From the NCBI RefSeq assembly GCF_045037415.1, contig NZ_CP173438.1: a DNA stretch of 64,000 bases; one strand, 5' to 3'. Below are positions 1,374 to 51,564 of this stretch, one piece after another. This DNA comes from Escherichia coli. GTDB taxonomy: Bacteria > Pseudomonadota > Gammaproteobacteria > Enterobacterales > Enterobacteriaceae. The notes under the pieces are model-generated. The model was given only the letters and a program-made list of their open reading frames with translations, did not search any database and was not told where the DNA came from. Position numbers and translations under genes: made by a program. Every line of letters starts with the position of its first letter. Position 1 is the first letter of the stretch.

Positions 1374-1957
1374 TCGCTAACTTCGCGTCTTGCACTCTTC
1401 GGTCTGAATGCTGCAACCACTTCCGGTGCCGTTTCAACGTATGGCCCTTCCAGCAACTGAATGCAGTACGGTACGCTGGCAAAAATACCGTGCACCACAA
1501 CGTTACCCTCAGCGTCCTTCACACCTTCCAGCGTCTCTTTAATAGACTTCGGTTGACCGGGTAAGTTAAGGATCAGCGCCTGTTTGCGAATCACCCCCAC
1601 CTGACGCGAAAGGATCGCAGTTGGTACAAAATGCAGGCTGATCTGGCGCATCTGTTCACCAAAGCCTGGCATCTCGCGGTCCGCTACTGCCAGCGTCGCA
1701 TCGGGCGTTACGTCACGACGCGCCGGGCCAGTTCCGCCCGTGGTAAGCACCAGATGGCAACTCATTTCATCCACCAGCTCACACAACGTTTGCTCGATGA
1801 TCGCCTGCTCATCGGGAATTAAGCGGGTTTCCAGTTCAAACGGCGTGGTTAGCGCCGATGTCAGCCATTCTTCCAGCGCAGGGATGCCTTTATCCTGATA
1901 AACGCCGCTGGATGCGCGATCAGAGATGGAAACTAAGCCAATACGTAAAGTATTCAT
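1370..1957 (-). CDS. mog: Molybdopterin adenylyltransferase Mog, 195 aa (start taken at second Met, MNTLRIGLVSISD)
   Basis: ORF 1370..1960; MogA/MoaB fold signature GGTGPARRDVTPDAT; synteny talB-mog-satP. Confidence 0.93.
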   Translation of the reverse strand: MNTLRIGLVSISDRASSGVYQDKGIPALEEWLTSALTTPFELETRLIPDEQAIIEQTLCELVDEMSCHLVLTTGGTGPARRDVTPDATLAVADREMPGFGEQMRQISLHFVPTAILSRQVGVIRKQALILNLPGQPKSIKETLEGVKDAEGNVVVHGIFASVPYCIQLLEGPYVETAPEVVAAFRPKSARREVSE

Positions 1958-2071
1958 CAAGATTTTTCCGTTTAAACAGTCTCGTTAAACAGAATGATAC
2001 ACTGCGAAGGGAGTGACAGACAGGTTTCAGAAGAGGTAGCGTGACCGACTTCCCGGTCACGCTAAGAATGA

Positions 2072-3025
2072 TTACAGCAGATCGCCGATCATTTTTTCCA
2101 GTTTTTCCTGGTCAACAGCAAACTTACGGATACCTTCCGCCAGTTTATCTACTGCCATTGGATCCTGGTTGTGCTGCCACAGGAACTCGGACTCAGTGAT
2201 ACGCGCCGGACGCGCTTTCACTTCACCAGTGTAAGACAGTTTACGTTCGATAGCCCCTTCGCTCTCCGCCAGCTCTTTCAGCAGTGCCGGTGCGATGGTC
2301 AGACGGTCGCAGCCTGCCAGTTCCAGAATTTCGCCGATGTTACGGAAGCTTGCGCCCATAACCACGGTTTCATAACCGTGCTCTTTGTAGTACTGGTAGA
2401 TTTCAGATACAGAAACCACGCCTGGATCTTCTGCCGGAGCGTACTCTTTCTTATCGGTATTCGCTTTGTACCAGTCAAGAATACGGCCAACAAACGGCGA
2501 GATCAGGAACACGCCCGCTTCCGCACAAGCACGAGCCTGAGCGAAGGAGAACAGCAGGGTCAGGTTACAGTTGATGCCTTCTTTTTCCAGCTGTTCCGCA
2601 GCACGGATACCCTGCCAGGTAGAAGCCAGTTTGATCAGAATACGATCGTTGCTAATACCTGCATCGTTGTAGAGTTTGATCAGGCGTTTTGCTTTCGCAA
2701 TTGACGCTTCGGTGTCATAGGAAAGACGCGCATCAACTTCAGTTGAGATACGGCCCGGAACCAGTTTCAGGATTTCCAGACCAATATTTACGGCCAGTTT
2801 GTCGGTCGCGTCCACGATCTGCTGCGCGCGATCGTTGCTCTGCTGTTTCGCCCAGGCGACAGCATCATCAATCAACTTACGGTATTCCGGAATCTGCGCT
2901 GCGTTAAGAATGAGAGAAGGGTTGGTTGTGGCATCCTGCGGTTGATACAGCTTCATTGCCGCGATGTCCCCAGTGTCGGCCACTACGGTGGTGTACTGAC
3001 GAAGGGAGGTCAATTTGTCCGTCAT
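2072..3025 (-). CDS. talB: Transaldolase B, 317 aa (start at [10 protein letters not shown], internal to the longer track ORF)
   Basis: ORF 2072..3088 contains recognisable TalB sequence; expected 317 aa length from MTDKL. Confidence 0.95.
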
Positions 3026-3303
3026 GATAGTATTTCTCTTTAAACAGCTTGTTAGGGGGATGTAACCGGTCTGCCCTGATGATATCACGACGCAACGTCA
3101 GCGCAACCGCCGACAAGACGGTTATCGCCAGGCGAGACTGTTTCGGATTTCTGACACTGCGTTGATATCGCCCGCCATTTTTATACAAAACCTCATGTAT
3201 GCTACGCAGAAGTTATCAAGTACCTCGTAGCGTATATACTTCTTAAACAATTGGTAACGTTTACACAGGAAAGTCATCGCGACCGGCAATAAGAGGGATA
3301 TGC

Positions 3304-4734
3304 ATGCCAGATTTTTTCTCCTTTATTAACAGCGTCCTTTGGGGTTCGGTAATGATTTACCTGCTCTTCGGCGCAGGTTGTTGGTTCACTTTTCGCACCG
3401 GATTTGTGCAGTTTCGCTACATCCGCCAGTTTGGCAAAAGTCTTAAAAATAGCATTCATCCACAGCCAGGCGGTTTAACCTCATTTCAGTCATTGTGTAC
3501 CAGTCTTGCAGCGCGCGTGGGTAGCGGCAACCTGGCCGGCGTTGCGCTGGCAATTACCGCCGGTGGACCTGGAGCCGTCTTCTGGATGTGGGTTGCCGCA
3601 TTTATCGGCATGGCGACCTCGTTTGCCGAATGTTCCCTCGCACAGCTTTATAAAGAACGTGATGCCAATGGGCAGTTTCGTGGCGGACCGGCATGGTATA
3701 TGGCGCGCGGGCTGGGGATGCGCTGGATGGGCGTTCTGTTCGCCGTCTTTTTGCTCATCGCCTACGGCATAATTTTCAGCGGAGTTCAGGCGAACGCCGT
3801 TGCGCGAGCCCTGAGTTTTTCTTTTGATTTTCCCCCGCTGGTGACAGGTATTATTCTCGCTGTCTTTGCTATGCTGGCGATCACTCGCGGTCTTCATGGC
3901 GTCGCCCGGCTCATGCAGGGGTTTGTCCCGTTGATGGCGATAATCTGGGTACTGACCAGCCTGGTGATTTGCGTAATGAATATCGGGCAACTTCCCCACG
4001 TCATTTGGTCTATTTTTGAGAGTGCTTTTGGCTGGCAGGAAGCGGCAGGCGGCGCGGCGGGATATACCTTAAGCCAGGCGATTACTAACGGTTTTCAGCG
4101 CAGTATGTTTTCCAATGAGGCGGGAATGGGGTCGACGCCAAACGCGGCAGCGGCAGCTGCGTCCTGGCCTCCGCATCCGGCAGCGCAAGGAATTGTCCAG
4201 ATGATTGGCATTTTTATCGACACCCTGGTCATCTGTACGGCAAGCGCCATGCTGATATTACTGGCGGGTAACGGCACAACCTACATGCCGCTGGAAGGTA
4301 TTCAGCTTATCCAGAAGGCGATGCGGGTGCTAATGGGTTCCTGGGGTGCGGAGTTTGTTACCCTCGTGGTTATTCTGTTTGCCTTCAGCTCCATCGTTGC
4401 CAACTACATTTATGCCGAAAACAATCTCTTCTTTTTACGCCTGAACACCCCTAAAGCGATCTGGTGTCTGCGGATCTGCACCTTCGCAACGGTCATCGGC
4501 GGCACCTTGCTAAGTCTTCCGCTGATGTGGCAACTGGCAGATATCATTATGGCCTGCATGGCTATTACCAATTTGACCGCCATATTACTGCTCTCGCCTG
4601 TGGTTCATACCATTGCCAGTGATTATCTACGCCAGCGTAAACTCGGCGTGCGCCCGGTGTTTGATCCGTTGCGTTATCCGGAGATCGGTCGCCAGCTTTC
4701 TCCGGACGCGTGGGATGATGTTTCGCAGGAGTAA
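3304..4734 (+). CDS. yaaJ: Alanine/glycine:cation symporter (AGCS) family transporter, 476 aa
   Basis: ORF 3304..4734; polytopic membrane protein with AGCS-family features; synteny. Confidence 0.9.
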   Translation: MPDFFSFINSVLWGSVMIYLLFGAGCWFTFRTGFVQFRYIRQFGKSLKNSIHPQPGGLTSFQSLCTSLAARVGSGNLAGVALAITAGGPGAVFWMWVAAFIGMATSFAECSLAQLYKERDANGQFRGGPAWYMARGLGMRWMGVLFAVFLLIAYGIIFSGVQANAVARALSFSFDFPPLVTGIILAVFAMLAITRGLHGVARLMQGFVPLMAIIWVLTSLVICVMNIGQLPHVIWSIFESAFGWQEAAGGAAGYTLSQAITNGFQRSMFSNEAGMGSTPNAAAAAASWPPHPAAQGIVQMIGIFIDTLVICTASAMLILLAGNGTTYMPLEGIQLIQKAMRVLMGSWGAEFVTLVVILFAFSSIVANYIYAENNLFFLRLNTPKAIWCLRICTFATVIGGTLLSLPLMWQLADIIMACMAITNLTAILLLSPVVHTIASDYLRQRKLGVRPVFDPLRYPEIGRQLSPDAWDDVSQE

Positions 4735-11860: not shown

Positions 11861-12259
11861 ATTGCCACTCTTCTTGACCAAATAACCGCGAACAGGGTGA
11901 TCACCGTCAACTTATTACGCGGTGAGAATTTACAAATTCTTAACGTAAGTCGCAGAAAAAGCCCTTTACTTAGCTTAAAAAAGGCTAAACTATTTCCTGA
12001 CTGTACTAACGATTGAATTGTTAAAAAATGCTACATATCCTTCTGTTTACTTAGGATAATTTTATAAAAAATAAATCTCGATAATTGGATTCACCACGTT
12101 TATTAGTTGTATGATGCAACTAGTTGGATTATTAAAATAATGTGACGAAAGCTAGCATTTAGATACGATCATTTCATCAAACTGTTAACGTGCTACAATT
12201 GAACTTGATATATGTCAACGAAGCGTAGTTTTATTGGGTGTCCTGCCCCTCTTAGCCTG

Positions 12260-37829: not shown

Positions 37830-37831
37830 CA

Positions 37832-38335
37832 TGCCGGATACGGCCTACGGTTCGGCACAGACTTGTAGGCATGATAAGACGCGACAAGCGTCGCATCAGG
37901 CATTATGCGCCGACTGCCGGATGCGGCGTGAACGCCTTATCCGGCCTACGGTTCGGCACAGACTTGTAGGCATGATAAGACGCGTCAGCGTCGCATCAGG
38001 CATTGTGCGCCAACTGCCGGATGCGGCGTGAACGCCTTATCCGGCCTACGGTTCGGCACAGACTTGTAGGCATGATAAGACGCGTCAAGCGTCGCATCAG
38101 GCATTGTGCGCCAACTGCCGGATGCGGCGTGAACGCCTTATCCGGCCTACGGTTCGGCACAAACCTGTAGGCATGATAAGACGCGTCAAGCGTCGCATCA
38201 GGCATTGTGCGCCAACTGCCGGATGCGGCGTGAACGCCTTATCCGGCCTACGGTTCGGCACAAACCTGTAGGCATGATAAGACGCGACAAGCGTCGCATC
38301 AGGCATTATGCGCCGACTGCCGGATGCTGCCTACG
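37832..38335. repeat. BIME/REP tandem array: about 5 copies of a 100-101 bp unit, each built from two inverted REP sequences
   Basis: Direct repetition of gccggatgcggcgtgaacgccttatccggcctacggttcggcaca(g/a)ac(t/c)tgtaggcatgataagacgcg(a/t)caagcgtcgcatcaggcatt(g/a)tgcgcc with period 100-101 bp between convergent yjjW and yjjV. Confidence 0.9.
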
Positions 38336-38344
38336 AAGGGTAAA

Positions 38345-46876: not shown

Positions 46877-47665
46877 ATGGCCTATCGTTCCGCACCGCTC
46901 TATGAAGATGTTATCTGGCGAACGCATCTCCAGCCACAGGATGCTGGGCTTGCACAAGCCGTACGTGCGACGATCGCCAAACATCGTGAACATTTGCTCG
47001 AGTTTATCCGCCTGGATGAACCCGCTCCGCTTAACGCCATGACGCTGGCGCAATGGTCATCACCGAATGCGCTAAGTTCTCTACTCGCGGTCTATTCCGA
47101 TCATATCTATCGCAACCAACCAACGATGATCCGCGAGAACAAACCGCTGATCTCACTATGGGCACAATGGTATATCGGCCTGATGGTGCCACCATTAATG
47201 CTGGCGCTACTGACGCAGGAAAAAGCATTAGATGTGTCGCCGGAACATTTCCATGCTGAGTTTCACGAAACCGGCCGTGCCGCCTGTTTCTGGGTCGATG
47301 TGTGTGACGATAAAAACGCAACACCACATTCGCCGCAGCAGCGAATGGAAACGTTAATCAGCCAGGCGCTGGTTCCGGTTGTGCAGGCACTAGAAGCGAC
47401 CGGAGAGATCAACGGCAAACTTATCTGGAGTAATACCGGTTATTTGATCAACTGGTATCTCACTGAGATGAAGCAACTGCTCGGCGAGGCGACGGTTGAA
47501 TCGCTGCGCCATGCCATCTTTTTTGAGAAAACGCTCACGAACGGTGAAGATAATCCACTCTGGCGTACCGTGGTACTGCGCGACGGCCTGCTGGTGCGCC
47601 GCACTTGCTGCCAGCGTTATCGCTTACCGGATGTGCAGCAATGTGGCGATTGTACGCTGAAATGA
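46877..47665 (+). CDS. fhuF: Ferric-siderophore reductase FhuF (2Fe-2S), 262 aa
   Basis: ORF 46877..47665; C-terminal Cys cluster CCQRYRLPDVQQCGDC. Confidence 0.93.
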   Translation: MAYRSAPLYEDVIWRTHLQPQDAGLAQAVRATIAKHREHLLEFIRLDEPAPLNAMTLAQWSSPNALSSLLAVYSDHIYRNQPTMIRENKPLISLWAQWYIGLMVPPLMLALLTQEKALDVSPEHFHAEFHETGRAACFWVDVCDDKNATPHSPQQRMETLISQALVPVVQALEATGEINGKLIWSNTGYLINWYLTEMKQLLGEATVESLRHAIFFEKTLTNGEDNPLWRTVVLRDGLLVRRTCCQRYRLPDVQQCGDCTLK

Positions 47666-47702
47666 AAGCACTGCCGGGGAAGTAAACCCGGCATCATGCG
47701 GA

Positions 47703-48380
47703 TTAATAGGGATGCAACACATTACTTGCTTCGCAATGCCGCATACATAACAGAATATCTGCGGCCTCCAACAATCCTGCATCAGAACTGACGCCCAGTT
47801 TCGACATCACATTAAATTTATGCGCGCGGATCGTTTTGATATTGCGTTTAAGCTGCTCGGCAATTTGTGTCATTGAGTAGCCACGCGACATAAAGCGCAA
47901 TATTTCTCTCTCCGTCGGGCTTAGCGTCCGGCTTTGGTTAATGTACCACTGATTGTTCAGTCGGTCGGTCGCCTGACGTACACCATTTAATGACAAAAAG
48001 AGTTCCTGATGAAAAATCTCCAGCGTTGACGCTTTACTTAATACACCGTCCAGCGGTGATGGCGACAATGAACCAATCAGCCGAGCTTCAATATCATCAT
48101 CCGCAATAACTAAACGCCGGGTACGCGGAAACTTAATCGCCAGTTCAGTCAGGCAAGATAATCCCTCTCTGCGCTCACTTCTCATGGCAGAAAAAGAAAA
48201 AATGACCGCCGCAAACGAGATCCGCGACATGGCATCCTGAAATGACTCCTGACTGGTATAGGTATGGAGCTTATAAGGGTTGCCCGCAAACTTTCTGAAT
48301 AAACTCTCAATACCGATACTACTCATGACGCATTTTTCTATGAGTGCGACATTTCTCTTCTTAATTCGGCTGTGTTCCAT
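47703..48380 (-). CDS. bglJ: LuxR/FixJ-type transcriptional regulator BglJ, 225 aa
   Basis: ORF 47703..48380; C-terminal LuxR HTH; overlaps yjjQ 3' end. Confidence 0.88.
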
Positions 48381-49063
48381 TCTGCGGCATCTCCATAAAC
48401 AGAAGGCAAGTTAAGTTCTCTTGCACCCTGCGCGCTATTTATCCATGCATACATTTCAGCGTTGCTGTGAATTGCCAGTCGACGCATCGCACTGTTTTTT
48501 TGGGCGCTGATAGTTTTATTACTTTTCTTAAGCAATGAAGCTATCTGGTTGATGCCCCATCCTTTACCTAATAGCCGCAGTACCTTGCGCTCTGAAAGAG
48601 TGAGAATGACGGAGCGATAGCTAAAATCATGAGTTTCAGTCATTGCCGGAGAGGTCAGCATGGCGCTGATACGCTCTGCGTGCGTATTGCCGGAACGTAC
48701 GGTCTTGACCAGATTCTCAATGGGTTCAACATCAGACAATAACGTCGCCGTAGGGCACATGAGCAGTTCTACTGCCTGGGAATACCAGGAGCGTGACACC
48801 ATGAAAACCCAGTGAATTTCCCGATATTGTGAGATTAAAGAATAATAATGTTCACAAACAGAACGTGGATCTTCACTTTCACCGGCTAAATCAGCAATGA
48901 CTAATCCGGAACGACGTAATTGTAATAAGGTAAGGTCCTCCGCAGAGGCGCTGGATATTATTTCATATTCAGGGAAGTGAGTCCTCATGACCTCTTTTAA
49001 CCCTGCTTGCATAACAGGTATTTTACTGATAACAATTCCATTTTTGCAGCATCCTGGCAACAT
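48338..49063 (-). CDS. yjjQ: LuxR/FixJ-type transcriptional regulator YjjQ, 241 aa
   Basis: ORF 48338..49063; C-terminal LuxR HTH ([20 protein letters not shown]). Confidence 0.88.
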
Positions 49064-49683
49064 ATTTCCTCCACATCCACTGTCTAAAAATTATGATGGT
49101 TTATTCAGGATATTCATTCCTTAAATGTTTCCAGCAAATTAATAGATTAAGCGAATAAATTATCCTTAGCATTCACTTTCATATCAGCATACTCCTGCTG
49201 CACAACAACTCCACTGCATGTGTCAGAAGGTTAGCATCAAATGATAACCTGGTGAAATAGCCTGGAGACATTTAAAATATCTACATTAAGTTGTTAGGAA
49301 TACTTAATGAAAAACAGAAATCACATTCATTTAATTATAAATTAAATGATATCCCTTCCCGCAGAATGCGGGAATCACACAATCAATATTTATTCAATAA
49401 AATCTGATGATTTTAACTTGTTAACACTAAAAAACGCGCCCAGCTATCTATTATCCTGACCCGTAAAGGCTAAAACAATAAATTCATTATAGTGATAATA
49501 TTCATGTGATAGTTTGTTTGCGGCGAGAGATAATTCGCTTTTTATCACCGAGCTTGTCCCGATAACCAGGATTAATCAGCGCAATTTTGATCTTAACCTA
49601 CCTCAAAACAACCGTGCTTCATGATACAAATGGATTCTCATTATCTGAACAATACGCAGCACGTCTATGACAAAGGGCGAGTT

Positions 49684-50454
49684 ATGCAAACTGAGCAACA
49701 GCGAGCCGTAACGCGGCTTTGTATCCAGTGTGGATTATTTCTTTTGCAACATGGTGCGGAAAGCGCGTTGGTTGATGAGCTTTCCTCACGACTGGGTCGG
49801 GCGTTGGGAATGGACAGCGTCGAAAGTTCTATCTCTTCGAACGCCATAGTGCTGACAACTATTAAAGATGGGCAATGCCTGACATCGACACGAAAAAATC
49901 ACGATCGCGGCATTAATATGCATGTGGTGACTGAAGTCCAGCACATTGTGATTCTTGCGGAGCATCATCTGCTGGATTACAAAGGCGTAGAGAAACGATT
50001 TAGCCAAATTCAGCCATTACGTTACCCAAGATGGCTGGTAGCCTTAATGGTTGGCCTTTCTTGCGCCTGTTTCTGTAAACTCAATAACGGTGGCTGGGAT
50101 GGTGCCGTCATCACCTTCTTTGCCAGTACGACCGCGATGTATATCCGCCAGCTGCTGGCACAACGTCATCTTCATCCACAGATCAACTTTTGCCTTACCG
50201 CTTTCGCCGCCACCACCATTTCCGGATTGCTTTTGCAACTCCCCACTTTCAGCGATACACCCACCATTGCGATGGCCGCCAGCGTTCTGCTGCTGGTGCC
50301 GGGCTTTCCGTTGATTAATGCCGTCGCCGATATGTTTAAAGGCCACATCAATACCGGACTGGCACGCTGGGCGATCGCCAGTCTGCTGACGCTGGCTACC
50401 TGCGTCGGCGTGGTGATGGCACTGACGATTTGGGGGCTACGCGGATGGGTGTGA
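49684..50454 (+). CDS. yjjP: ThrE-family (DUF1212) inner membrane protein YjjP, about 256 aa (start MQTEQQRAV)
   Basis: ORF 49621..50454; start chosen by length expectation; polytopic membrane protein; paired with yjjB. Confidence 0.8.
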
Positions 50455-50918
50455 TCGAGTTTCTGTTTGCATTGGCGCAGGATATGATCCTCGCCGCCAT
50501 TCCAGCGGTCGGCTTTGCGATGGTGTTCAACGTTCCCGTGCGGGCGTTACGCTGGTGTGCGCTGCTTGGCGCGATTGGCCATGGTTCACGAATGATCTTA
50601 ATGACCAGCGGGCTGAATATTGAGTGGTCAACTTTTATGGCTTCTATGCTGGTCGGCACCATTGGTATTCAATGGTCGCGCTGGTATCTGGCGCATCCGA
50701 AAGTGTTTACCGTGGCGGCCGTTATCCCTATGTTCCCGGGCATATCGGCTTATACCGCAATGATTTCGGCGGTAAAAATCAGCCAGTTAGGTTACAGCGA
50801 ACCGTTGATGATTACCCTGTTAACCAACTTTCTTACAGCTTCATCGATTGTTGGTGCGTTATCCATCGGTCTTTCCATTCCTGGATTATGGTTGTACCGC
50901 AAGCGCCCTCGCGTATAA
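50445..50918 (+). CDS. yjjB: ThrE-family (DUF3815) inner membrane protein YjjB, 157 aa
   Basis: ORF 50430..50918; overlaps yjjP 3' end by 10 nt; hydrophobic. Confidence 0.8.
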
Positions 50919-51024
50919 AATTGCCTCGCTTAAGCACACGGATGAGAGACAGCCTCCTCTCCTCCGTGTGTTACTATAAAAGTTATCTCCCTTCTCGTTC
51001 ATCGTTCCATATTTGAGAAACAGT

Positions 51025-51564
51025 ATGTCTTCCAGAGTTTTGACCCCGGACGTCGTTGGTATTGACGCCCTGGTACACGATCACCAAACCGTTCTGGCAA
51101 AAGCTGAAGGCGGTGTGGTTGCCGTATTTGCTAACAATGCCCCGGCGTTTTATGCCGTCACGCCTGCACGCCTGGCTGAACTGCTGGCGCTGGAAGAAAA
51201 GCTGGCGCGTCCGGGAAGCGATGTCGCTCTGGACGATCAACTCTATCAGGAACCGCAAGCCGCTCCCGTTGCTGTCCCCATGGGGAAATTCGCCATGTAT
51301 CCGGACTGGCAACCCGATGCCGACTTTATCCGCCTGGCGGCGCTATGGGGCGTGGCGCTAAGAGAGCCGGTGACCACCGAAGAACTGGCCTCATTCATTG
51401 CCTACTGGCAGGCGGAAGGTAAAGTCTTTCACCATGTGCAGTGGCAACAAAAACTGGCGCGCAGCCTGCAAATCGGTCGTGCCAGCAACGGCGGACTGCC
51501 GAAACGAGATGTGAATACGGTCAGCGAACCTGACAGCCAAATTCCACCAGGATTCAGAGGGTAA
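51025..51564 (+). CDS. dnaT: Primosomal protein DnaT, 179 aa (start [12 protein letters not shown])
   Basis: ORF 51013..51564; immediately upstream of dnaC. Confidence 0.92.

Follow-up and report, generated by a model that had tools for sequence, protein, structure and literature searches.

The AT-rich spacer between yjjP and yjjQ-bglJ of Escherichia coli as a probable shared control region silenced by H-NS and relieved by LeuO

In E. coli, the genes yjjP and yjjQ are transcribed away from each other across a spacer of 620 bp, and the locus raises the question of what accounts for so long and so AT-rich a stretch between two divergent units. The window, i.e. the whole 64-kb stretch of DNA that was analyzed, was 100% identical to the reverse complement of positions 693840-757839 of E. 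coli strain 736 (NZ_CP183993.1). The spacer and the genes around it, the latter as annotated in RefSeq, are the following.

46877-47665, plus strand: fhuF
47703-48380, minus strand: bglJ
48338-49063, minus strand: yjjQ
49064-49683, not stranded: the whole divergent intergenic regulatory region between yjjP and yjjQ-bglJ, 34.5% GC, the longest of 47 intergenic regions
49684-50454, plus strand: yjjP

Downstream of yjjP, the RefSeq annotation of strain 736 continues with yjjB, dnaT, and dnaC. The gene identities proposed in the sequence-only reading were confirmed. YjjQ and BglJ both matched GerE, the LuxR-type helix-turn-helix domain, and the coordinates of the two minus-strand genes gave the overlap of 43 nt that had been claimed for them. 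YjjP was assigned to the ThrE family by a domain search of the flanking proteins. YjjPB has been cited as a succinate exporter (PMC7236211) and YjjQ as a repressor of flhDC (PMC9962212; PMC5210515). No feature was annotated between yjjQ and yjjP in the two RefSeq/PGAP genomes inspected in detail, and a single IS1 was the sole feature annotated there among the E. coli matches listed. The 620-bp region was found in 5423 of 5426 complete E. coli genomes, with one copy per genome (median 1 place). The orthologous spacer of K-12 (DH1) was 96.6% identical over 620 bp, and its gene order was the same.

The spacer had been described from its letters as visibly AT-rich relative to its surroundings, and windowed GC content bore this out. 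The GC content of 49064-49683 was 34.5%, below the local average, as compared with a window mean of 52.1%; the standard deviation among 620-bp windows across the 64 kb was 4.1%. Windows of 620 bp this low in GC made up 0.27% of the total, and every one of them overlapped 49064-49683. The global 620-bp minimum of the window (33.7%) fell in the region between yjjP and yjjQ, and the lowest-GC 200-bp stretch was located at 49235-49434 (27.5%). TpA steps occurred at 8.9 per 100 bp versus 4.2 ± 1.2, placing the spacer in the top 0.7% of windows. A-tracts were not significantly enriched in the spacer over the window.

Low GC content might simply be the ordinary composition of intergenic DNA, in which case the spacer would be long and hold two ordinary promoters with no special silencing. 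The 64-kb window holds 47 intergenic regions that measure 30 bp or more; their mean GC content was 43.7 ± 7.9%, and five shorter ones lay below the spacer. Thus, composition alone is not diagnostic of H-NS silencing. Moreover, the high-affinity H-NS motif TCGATAAATT had no match with one mismatch or fewer in the 620-bp spacer. Four matches with two mismatches were present, about 5 times the density in the window, an enrichment that is expected from AT content alone. The distinctive trait of the spacer is its length combined with its AT-richness. With 620 bp against a median of 106 bp, it was about 6 times as long as the median region and was the most AT-rich among intergenic regions longer than about 210 bp. 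This excess length speaks against ordinary composition, as does the fact that AT-richness was kept over about 50 species while the central sequence was not (see below).

Published genetics point the same way. H-NS represses the yjjQ-bglJ operon and LeuO is its activator; in the laboratory the effect of H-NS prevails, so that the operon stays off (PMC5025477; PMC3950696). For this control, both papers cite the primary study, which came from their own laboratory, by Stratmann, Madhusudan, and Schnetz (2008, J Bacteriol 190:926). In genomic SELEX, the spacer was bound by RpoD holoenzyme and was flagged "HNS" (PMC3946193). An RpoS-holoenzyme SELEX peak in the spacer has K-12 coordinate 4601330 (PMC5493296), which corresponds by coordinate arithmetic to about position 49233 of the window. 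In view of the reported H-NS repression with LeuO antagonism and of the SELEX signal for H-NS, we consider it very improbable that the spacer is nothing but ordinary intergenic DNA. The view of the locus as H-NS-silenced, which had been taken from its composition, is instead supported by published K-12 work on the orthologous region. Stratmann and colleagues are said to have located H-NS binding in the middle of the AT-rich stretch, away from both promoters, and LeuO sites likewise in the center, with one overlapping the yjjP promoter; yjjP was reportedly H-NS-repressed as well. Following that study, the zone of H-NS nucleation and LeuO binding is presumed to lie in the center of the spacer at 49311-49564.

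The spacer is thus very probably a shared control region, silenced by H-NS and relieved by LeuO, of both yjjQ-bglJ and yjjP-yjjB, the control itself, like MarA binding and the IS effects described below, being taken from published K-12 and ETEC experiments. Because the locus is orthologous and its flanks are 99-100% identical to those of K-12, a K-12-like regulatory logic is expected, and H-NS silencing and LeuO antagonism would be expected to operate alike in the strain analyzed here and in K-12. About 8% of the central positions differ from K-12, so that site maps made in K-12 may not transfer exactly.

Alignment with K-12 and with other Escherichia divided the spacer into three parts.

49064-49310, not stranded: yjjQ-proximal block, with an identity of 100% to K-12 and of 79-95% to other Escherichia
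49311-49564, not stranded: AT-rich, fast-evolving center, 91.7% identical to K-12 and about 51% to cryptic Escherichia clades, with many indels; GC minimum 27.5-29%
49565-49683, plus strand: yjjP-proximal block, which holds the core promoter, the 5' UTR, and the Shine-Dalgarno sequence, with an identity of 99.2% to K-12 and of 82-97% to other Escherichia

The 9 differences from K-12 in the 771 nt of yjjP were used as a silent-site reference. Divergence of the center from K-12 (about 8%) was equal to or higher than the rough silent-site estimate for the flanking genes. The center therefore looks free in sequence and appears to be constrained only in composition. A scan of species-representative genomes with YjjP gave 80 Enterobacteriaceae loci, and nearly all of them had yjjQ-bglJ upstream of yjjP in divergent orientation. 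The spacer of about 50 Enterobacteriaceae species measured 347-709 bp and had 30-44% GC, as compared with 48-56% for the whole locus. Thus, AT-richness was conserved even though most of the sequence was not. Horizontal acquisition of a low-GC yjjQ-bglJ island was also considered and rejected, since synteny over about 70 Enterobacteriaceae species argues that the arrangement is ancient. Klebsiella, Raoultella, Kluyvera, and the Citrobacter amalonaticus group had an insertion of two genes between yjjQ and yjjP, one for an FAD-dependent monooxygenase and one for an AraC-type regulator.

The length of the spacer would also be accounted for if it harbored an unannotated gene, either for a small protein or for a small or cis-regulatory RNA. 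Several ORFs of 25-38 codons were indeed present, and one of them, a 30-codon ORF on the minus strand (49271 to 49179), was open in 5 of 6 Escherichia lineages. In addition, the promoter scan returned 7 promoter-like sites in the spacer where 3.3 ± 1.8 were expected, a mild enrichment of the kind expected for AT-rich DNA. None of the ORFs proved to be conserved as coding, in keeping with the earlier statement that the spacer contains no convincing ORF. In other E. coli strains, stops and frameshifts interrupted the small ORFs of the center. The 30-codon ORF was frameshifted in the sixth lineage, Escherichia sp. E1V33, had 13 of its 30 residues changed in sister species, and was not preceded by a Shine-Dalgarno sequence; it was rejected as a gene and appears to evolve neutrally. 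A scan of 47500-51200 on both strands with the covariance models of Rfam 15 gave no match at E ≤ 1. Together with the PGAP annotation described above, which has no gene here in the two genomes inspected and one IS1 only among the E. coli matches listed, these results make a hidden gene highly unlikely.

Candidate control elements were placed on the coordinates of the strain as follows.

49068-49072, minus strand: yjjQ Shine-Dalgarno sequence GGAGG, read from the sequence, 4 nt before the ATG at 49063-49061
49159-49187, minus strand: candidate sigma-70 promoter of yjjQ-bglJ, CTGATA-17-GATAAT, predicted by promoter scan
49234-49248, plus strand: marbox (MarA binding site) GCATCAAATGATAAC, identical to the published ETEC site and situated inside an imperfect inverted repeat at 49223-49255
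49307-49335, plus strand: promoter-like ATGAAA-17-TTTAAT, predicted and listed for yjjP in the SELEX work (PMC3946193)
49522-49549, plus strand: weak terminator-like stem plus T-run, one site versus 0.5 ± 0.8 in shuffles, i.e. at chance level
49587-49592, plus strand: TTGATC, at least 90% conserved among 77 aligned Enterobacteriaceae loci
49622-49630, plus strand: predicted extended -10 element of the yjjP promoter, TGaTACAAA, with the cross-genus consensus tG.tAaAa
49674-49686, plus strand: yjjP Shine-Dalgarno sequence AGGG plus the start ATG at 49684, conserved across genera as cAgggc plus ATG

On the yjjQ side, GGAGG was the sole upstream element kept across genera. The predicted -10 hexamer was retained as GATAAT or GATAAA in Escherichia, Citrobacter, and Salmonella. 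Both CTGATA-17-GATAAT for yjjQ-bglJ and ATGAAA-17-TTTAAT for yjjP are given in the RpoD SELEX table, where they are predicted promoters (PMC3946193). It is doubtful that the latter, at 49307-49335, is the main promoter of yjjP because the site lies in the poorly conserved center. The marbox was conserved in 12 of 13 aligned sequences, the exception being strain E500002 with a single C>T substitution at the final position, and the block around it was almost invariant among the 13. MarA ChIP-seq in ETEC H10407 yielded a peak in this spacer, in which MEME found the marbox gcatcaaatgataac, and the purified protein bound this site at 0.3 μM (PMC5684230, Table 1). Another MarA ChIP peak was located between leuL and leuO (PMC5684230).

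On the yjjP side, TTGATC was kept even where genes were inserted between yjjQ and yjjP. TTGATC, the -10-like motif TG-n-TAcAAa, and the Shine-Dalgarno sequence with its ATG all persisted despite the inserted monooxygenase and AraC genes, which indicates that they belong to yjjP. TTGATC and the -10-like motif are 32 nt apart, which rules out that they form one standard promoter; TTGATC may be an upstream promoter element or the site of a regulator. The exact promoter hexamers on both sides are to be taken as predictions.

The conserved ATG bears on where yjjP begins. The sequence-only reading had settled on 49684 and called the start ambiguous, with an ORF that opens at 49621. The choice of 49684 is borne out by the RefSeq start, the homologue alignments, and the conserved ATG plus AGGG. 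In most of the 80 loci, tblastn alignments to YjjP started at residue 1. A 277-amino acid isoform of YjjP initiated at 49621 was discarded, as an in-frame ATG at least 10 codons upstream of the conserved start was present in only 17 of 77 Enterobacteriaceae loci. In sister lineages, the ATG at 49621 was replaced by GTG, and the second ATG was AAG in two Escherichia lineages. In Escherichia sp. E1V33, a 1-nt insertion caused a frameshift with a stop inside the N-terminal extension of YjjP. The ATG at 49621 overlaps the -10-like motif, and its TG is part of TGaTACAAA. This overlap is probably the reason for the conservation of the ATG in E. coli, and from it we suggest that transcription of yjjP may start downstream of the codon. 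In the work of Stratmann and colleagues from 2008, the spacer between yjjP and yjjQ was reportedly given as 555 bp, which we take to be the distance to the older 277-codon start of yjjP, at 49621 here. For annotation purposes, 49684 is confirmed as the start of yjjP, and the misleading ATG upstream is suggested to be part of a -10 element.

The preferred reading of the spacer can be put as a sequence of proposed steps. It would serve two divergent units, yjjQ-bglJ with two LuxR/GerE-type regulators and yjjP-yjjB with a ThrE-family transporter for which succinate export has been reported. The two conserved flanks would hold the core promoters and ribosome-binding sites, each adjoining its own gene. 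H-NS would nucleate in the AT-rich, TpA-rich center of about 250 bp, a geometry that we infer, and would spread or bridge from there over both promoters, so that both units would be nearly off. LeuO would bind the same region and loosen the H-NS complex. A strong MarA site adjoins the yjjQ promoters. An insertion sequence landing between the AT-rich center and the core promoter of yjjP would free yjjP from silencing, and its expression would rise.

The last step concerns published insertions. During colonization of the mouse gut by K-12, adaptive insertions of IS1, IS2, and IS5 arose at -111, -185, and -256 from yjjP, the region being a recurrent target (PMC5094792). One evolved clone was assayed, with the IS1 -111 allele plus other mutations, and its expression of yjjP was increased about 2-fold aerobically; the selection coefficient was estimated at about 0.03-0.05 (PMC5094792). 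On the coordinates used here, the insertion of IS1 at -111 leaves the predicted extended -10 (49622-49630) joined to yjjP. A further insertion was found in a natural isolate.

49512-49520, not stranded: IS1 target site in the natural isolate TUM13064, with the 9-bp duplication GTTTGTTTG

All four known IS insertions, i.e. the three experimental ones and that of TUM13064, lie between the AT-rich center and the conserved core elements of yjjP. These positions fit the idea that the silencing center loses its hold on the yjjP promoter once an element has inserted.

Published work already covers the locus, its control by H-NS and LeuO, the MarA site, and the part it plays as an IS target during adaptation to the gut, and the region between yjjP and yjjQ is among the better-characterized intergenic regions of E. 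coli under H-NS/LeuO control. Gene identities, base composition, the pattern of conservation, and the positions of motifs were established here on the sequence of the strain. What is added is modest and consists of the placement of the published MarA box and SELEX promoters on its coordinates, the backing for 49684 as the start of yjjP, a probable template-switch origin of the polymorphic hairpin described below, and the finding of two constrained flanks around a free AT-rich core, with composition and not sequence being conserved across the Enterobacteriaceae. The strain shares with K-12 the flanking genes, their order, and the overall and flank identities given above; it differs in that its spacer is 2 bp longer, in the divergence of the center, and in a palindrome at 49356-49374 that K-12 lacks. 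The regions upstream of bgl and leuO are likewise AT-rich, silenced by H-NS, and relieved by LeuO and/or insertion elements. They are also connected to the present locus in one circuit, in which yjjQ-bglJ responds to activation by LeuO, and BglJ-RcsB is an activator of both leuO and bgl (PMC5025477; PMC3950696). Unlike at bgl and leuO, one AT-rich center serves two divergent promoters between yjjP and yjjQ, and the adaptive insertions there activate the transporter side (yjjP) rather than a catabolic operon.

The palindrome had been noticed before as a short hairpin at about 49365-49380. The hairpin exists, but that position is some 8 nt too far to the right.

49356-49374, not stranded: perfect 8-bp palindrome TTCCCGCA-GAA-TGCGGGAA, found by inverted-repeat search, with 5 G-C pairs in the stem

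Its core, cccgcagaatgcggg, occupies 49358-49372. As RNA, the hairpin folded with -12.2 kcal/mol (z = -3.7), as compared with -1.1 for the K-12 allele. A Rho-independent terminator was ruled out. A GC-rich stem-loop is present, but the stem is followed by TCACACAATC on the plus strand and GGGATATCAT on the minus strand, with no T-run or U-tract on either, and a terminator scan reported none at this place. A dispersed repeat of the REP/BIME or ERIC type was likewise dismissed, as both the 31-mer that contains the hairpin and the 620-bp region were single copy per genome.

In K-12, O103, and other strains, TGC-AAAATC is present where the strain analyzed here has TGCGGGAATC. Outgroup Escherichia also carried the A-run, and the palindrome was absent from every other Escherichia species examined. 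With the polarity set by these outgroups, the hairpin is evidently a lineage-specific derived allele. It was present once each in 2043 of 5426 complete E. coli genomes (38%), including O157:H7, ST131, UTI89, and Nissle 1917, and was missing from the remaining 62%. The alleles differ by a clustered change, AAAA>GGGAA, through which the 3' arm becomes the exact reverse complement of the 5' arm, and only two end states were seen in 17 sequenced alleles. A clustered change that perfects an imperfect inverted repeat is the signature of a quasipalindrome template-switch mutation. Ripley, as well as Lovett and colleagues, are credited with describing such mutations in E. coli. The change seen here agrees with them in making an imperfect inverted repeat exact; it differs in that the mechanism is deduced from natural polymorphism and not from an observed mutational event. 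The palindrome probably arose by template switching. We read the hairpin as a mutational by-product in the unconstrained center, and as such it offers a neat case from nature of what is probably a quasipalindrome mutation.

The hairpin could instead be functional, whether by terminating transcription, by stabilizing the RNA of a long yjjP leader, or as a site to which a protein binds. Its perfect 8-bp stem and the folding energy given above are in line with this, and a transcript from the predicted promoter at 49307-49335, if that promoter is active, would contain the hairpin at about +14 to +32. The sequence also varied little among the 2043 carriers. The 31-mer was exact in 1420, and 613 differed at one position (in 2 of 2 genomes checked, this was the loop variant GAA>GAG with an intact stem), and about 10 had further changes, stem breaks included; stem integrity among carriers could be interpreted as selection only with a phylogeny, and shared recent ancestry would give the same pattern. 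The hairpin is moreover missing from K-12, from most E. coli genomes, and from the other Escherichia examined, lacks a U-run on both strands, was not picked up by the terminator scan, and is placed in the least conserved part of the spacer. A function of this kind was thus judged improbable, and the reading as a by-product was retained.

We regard it as decidedly unlikely that the palindrome is a lineage-specific modifier of silencing, which it might be by interrupting the H-NS filament, by forming a cruciform, or by acting as a stem in a long yjjP leader. If it were, lineages would differ heritably in the expression of YjjQ, BglJ, and the YjjPB exporter, the genes of which have already been linked to virulence and gut fitness. 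The palindrome lies at the AT-minimum of the zone in which H-NS is presumed to nucleate, and the natural pair of alleles would allow a test of whether a GC island in that zone alters silencing.

Low GC content is not confined to the yjjP-yjjQ spacer (49064-49683). yjjQ and bglJ (47703-49063) have GC contents of 44.9% and 45.7%, respectively, against a window mean of 52.1% and values of 51-57% for neighbouring genes. Because both genes are GC-poor as well, the low-GC island extends over about 2 kb and is larger than the spacer. Synteny across the Enterobacteriaceae argues that this yjjQ-bglJ island is ancient and was not recently imported. Second in length among the window's intergenic regions, the yjjV-yjjW spacer (37830-38344, 515 bp) is by contrast unusually GC-rich (59%) and possibly represents clustered REP-type repeats. 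The window's other long AT-rich intergenic region lies between yjjY and yjtD (11861-12259, 399 bp, 34.8% GC); mutations in yjjY/yjtD, and others in the regulatory region of arcA, are among the gut-adaptive changes reported for K-12 (PMC5094792).

The elements located between yjjQ and yjjP were as follows.

Elements of the yjjP-yjjQ spacer and its counterparts in other genera
49234-49248, within the inverted repeat 49223-49255: marbox, exact match to the reported site
49273-49278, plus strand: TAAAAT hexamer, downstream of the marbox
49179-49271, minus strand: 30-codon ORF MSPGYFTRLSFDANLLTHAVELLCSRSMLI, intact in every sampled E. coli
1641-3723 in locus L058 and 1630-3708 in locus L007 (two of the compared genomes; locus coordinates): yjjQ-yjjP insert

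The marbox sequence derives from a MarA ChIP-seq peak between yjjP and yjjQ in ETEC H10407 (PMC5684230). As the hexamer follows the marbox on the plus strand, a MarA-dependent promoter directed to yjjP is conceivable as a prediction from these two motifs. Nearer to yjjP, at 49621-49630, the alternative yjjP 'ATG' (49621) shares bases with a -10-like motif, TGnTAnAAn, that different genera have conserved. When yjjP was formerly annotated as 277 aa, a promoter element was probably misread as its start codon. In Klebsiella, Raoultella, Kluyvera, and Citrobacter amalonaticus-type loci, about 2.6 kb of additional DNA separates yjjQ from yjjP. This DNA encodes a FAD-dependent monooxygenase (PF01494) as well as a regulator of the AraC family, and yjjP keeps its conserved core promoter block alongside it in these loci.

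The minus-strand ORF is also intact in two of three cryptic Escherichia lineages. A coding role was disfavoured, however, because 13 of the 30 residues are changed there, Escherichia sp. E1V33 carries a frameshift, and no Shine-Dalgarno sequence was found for this ORF, which is probably non-coding.

The hairpin at 49356-49374 proved to be a derived allele, in which replacement of AAAA by GGGAA made an imperfect palindrome perfect. It is present in 2043 of 5426 complete E. coli genomes, including O157:H7, ST131, UTI89, and Nissle; K-12, O103, and the other Escherichia species compared lack it. Quasipalindrome template switching converts imperfect palindromes into perfect ones. The perfected palindrome is read as its signature, and such a switch is the probable origin of the allele, judging from the sequence change.

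Among 5423 genomes matching the spacer, 13 (e.g. strain 203740) had no one location where the match spanned 80% or more of it, and in one genome only its last 45 bp remain. These genomes are candidate carriers of larger insertions or deletions involving yjjQ-bglJ. In the natural isolate TUM13064, IS1 is inserted at 49512-49520 with a 9-bp duplication, the rest of the spacer being identical. This site shares the yjjP-proximal zone with the adaptive IS1, IS2, and IS5 insertions found at -111, -185, and -256 from yjjP during evolution of K-12 in the mouse gut (PMC5094792).
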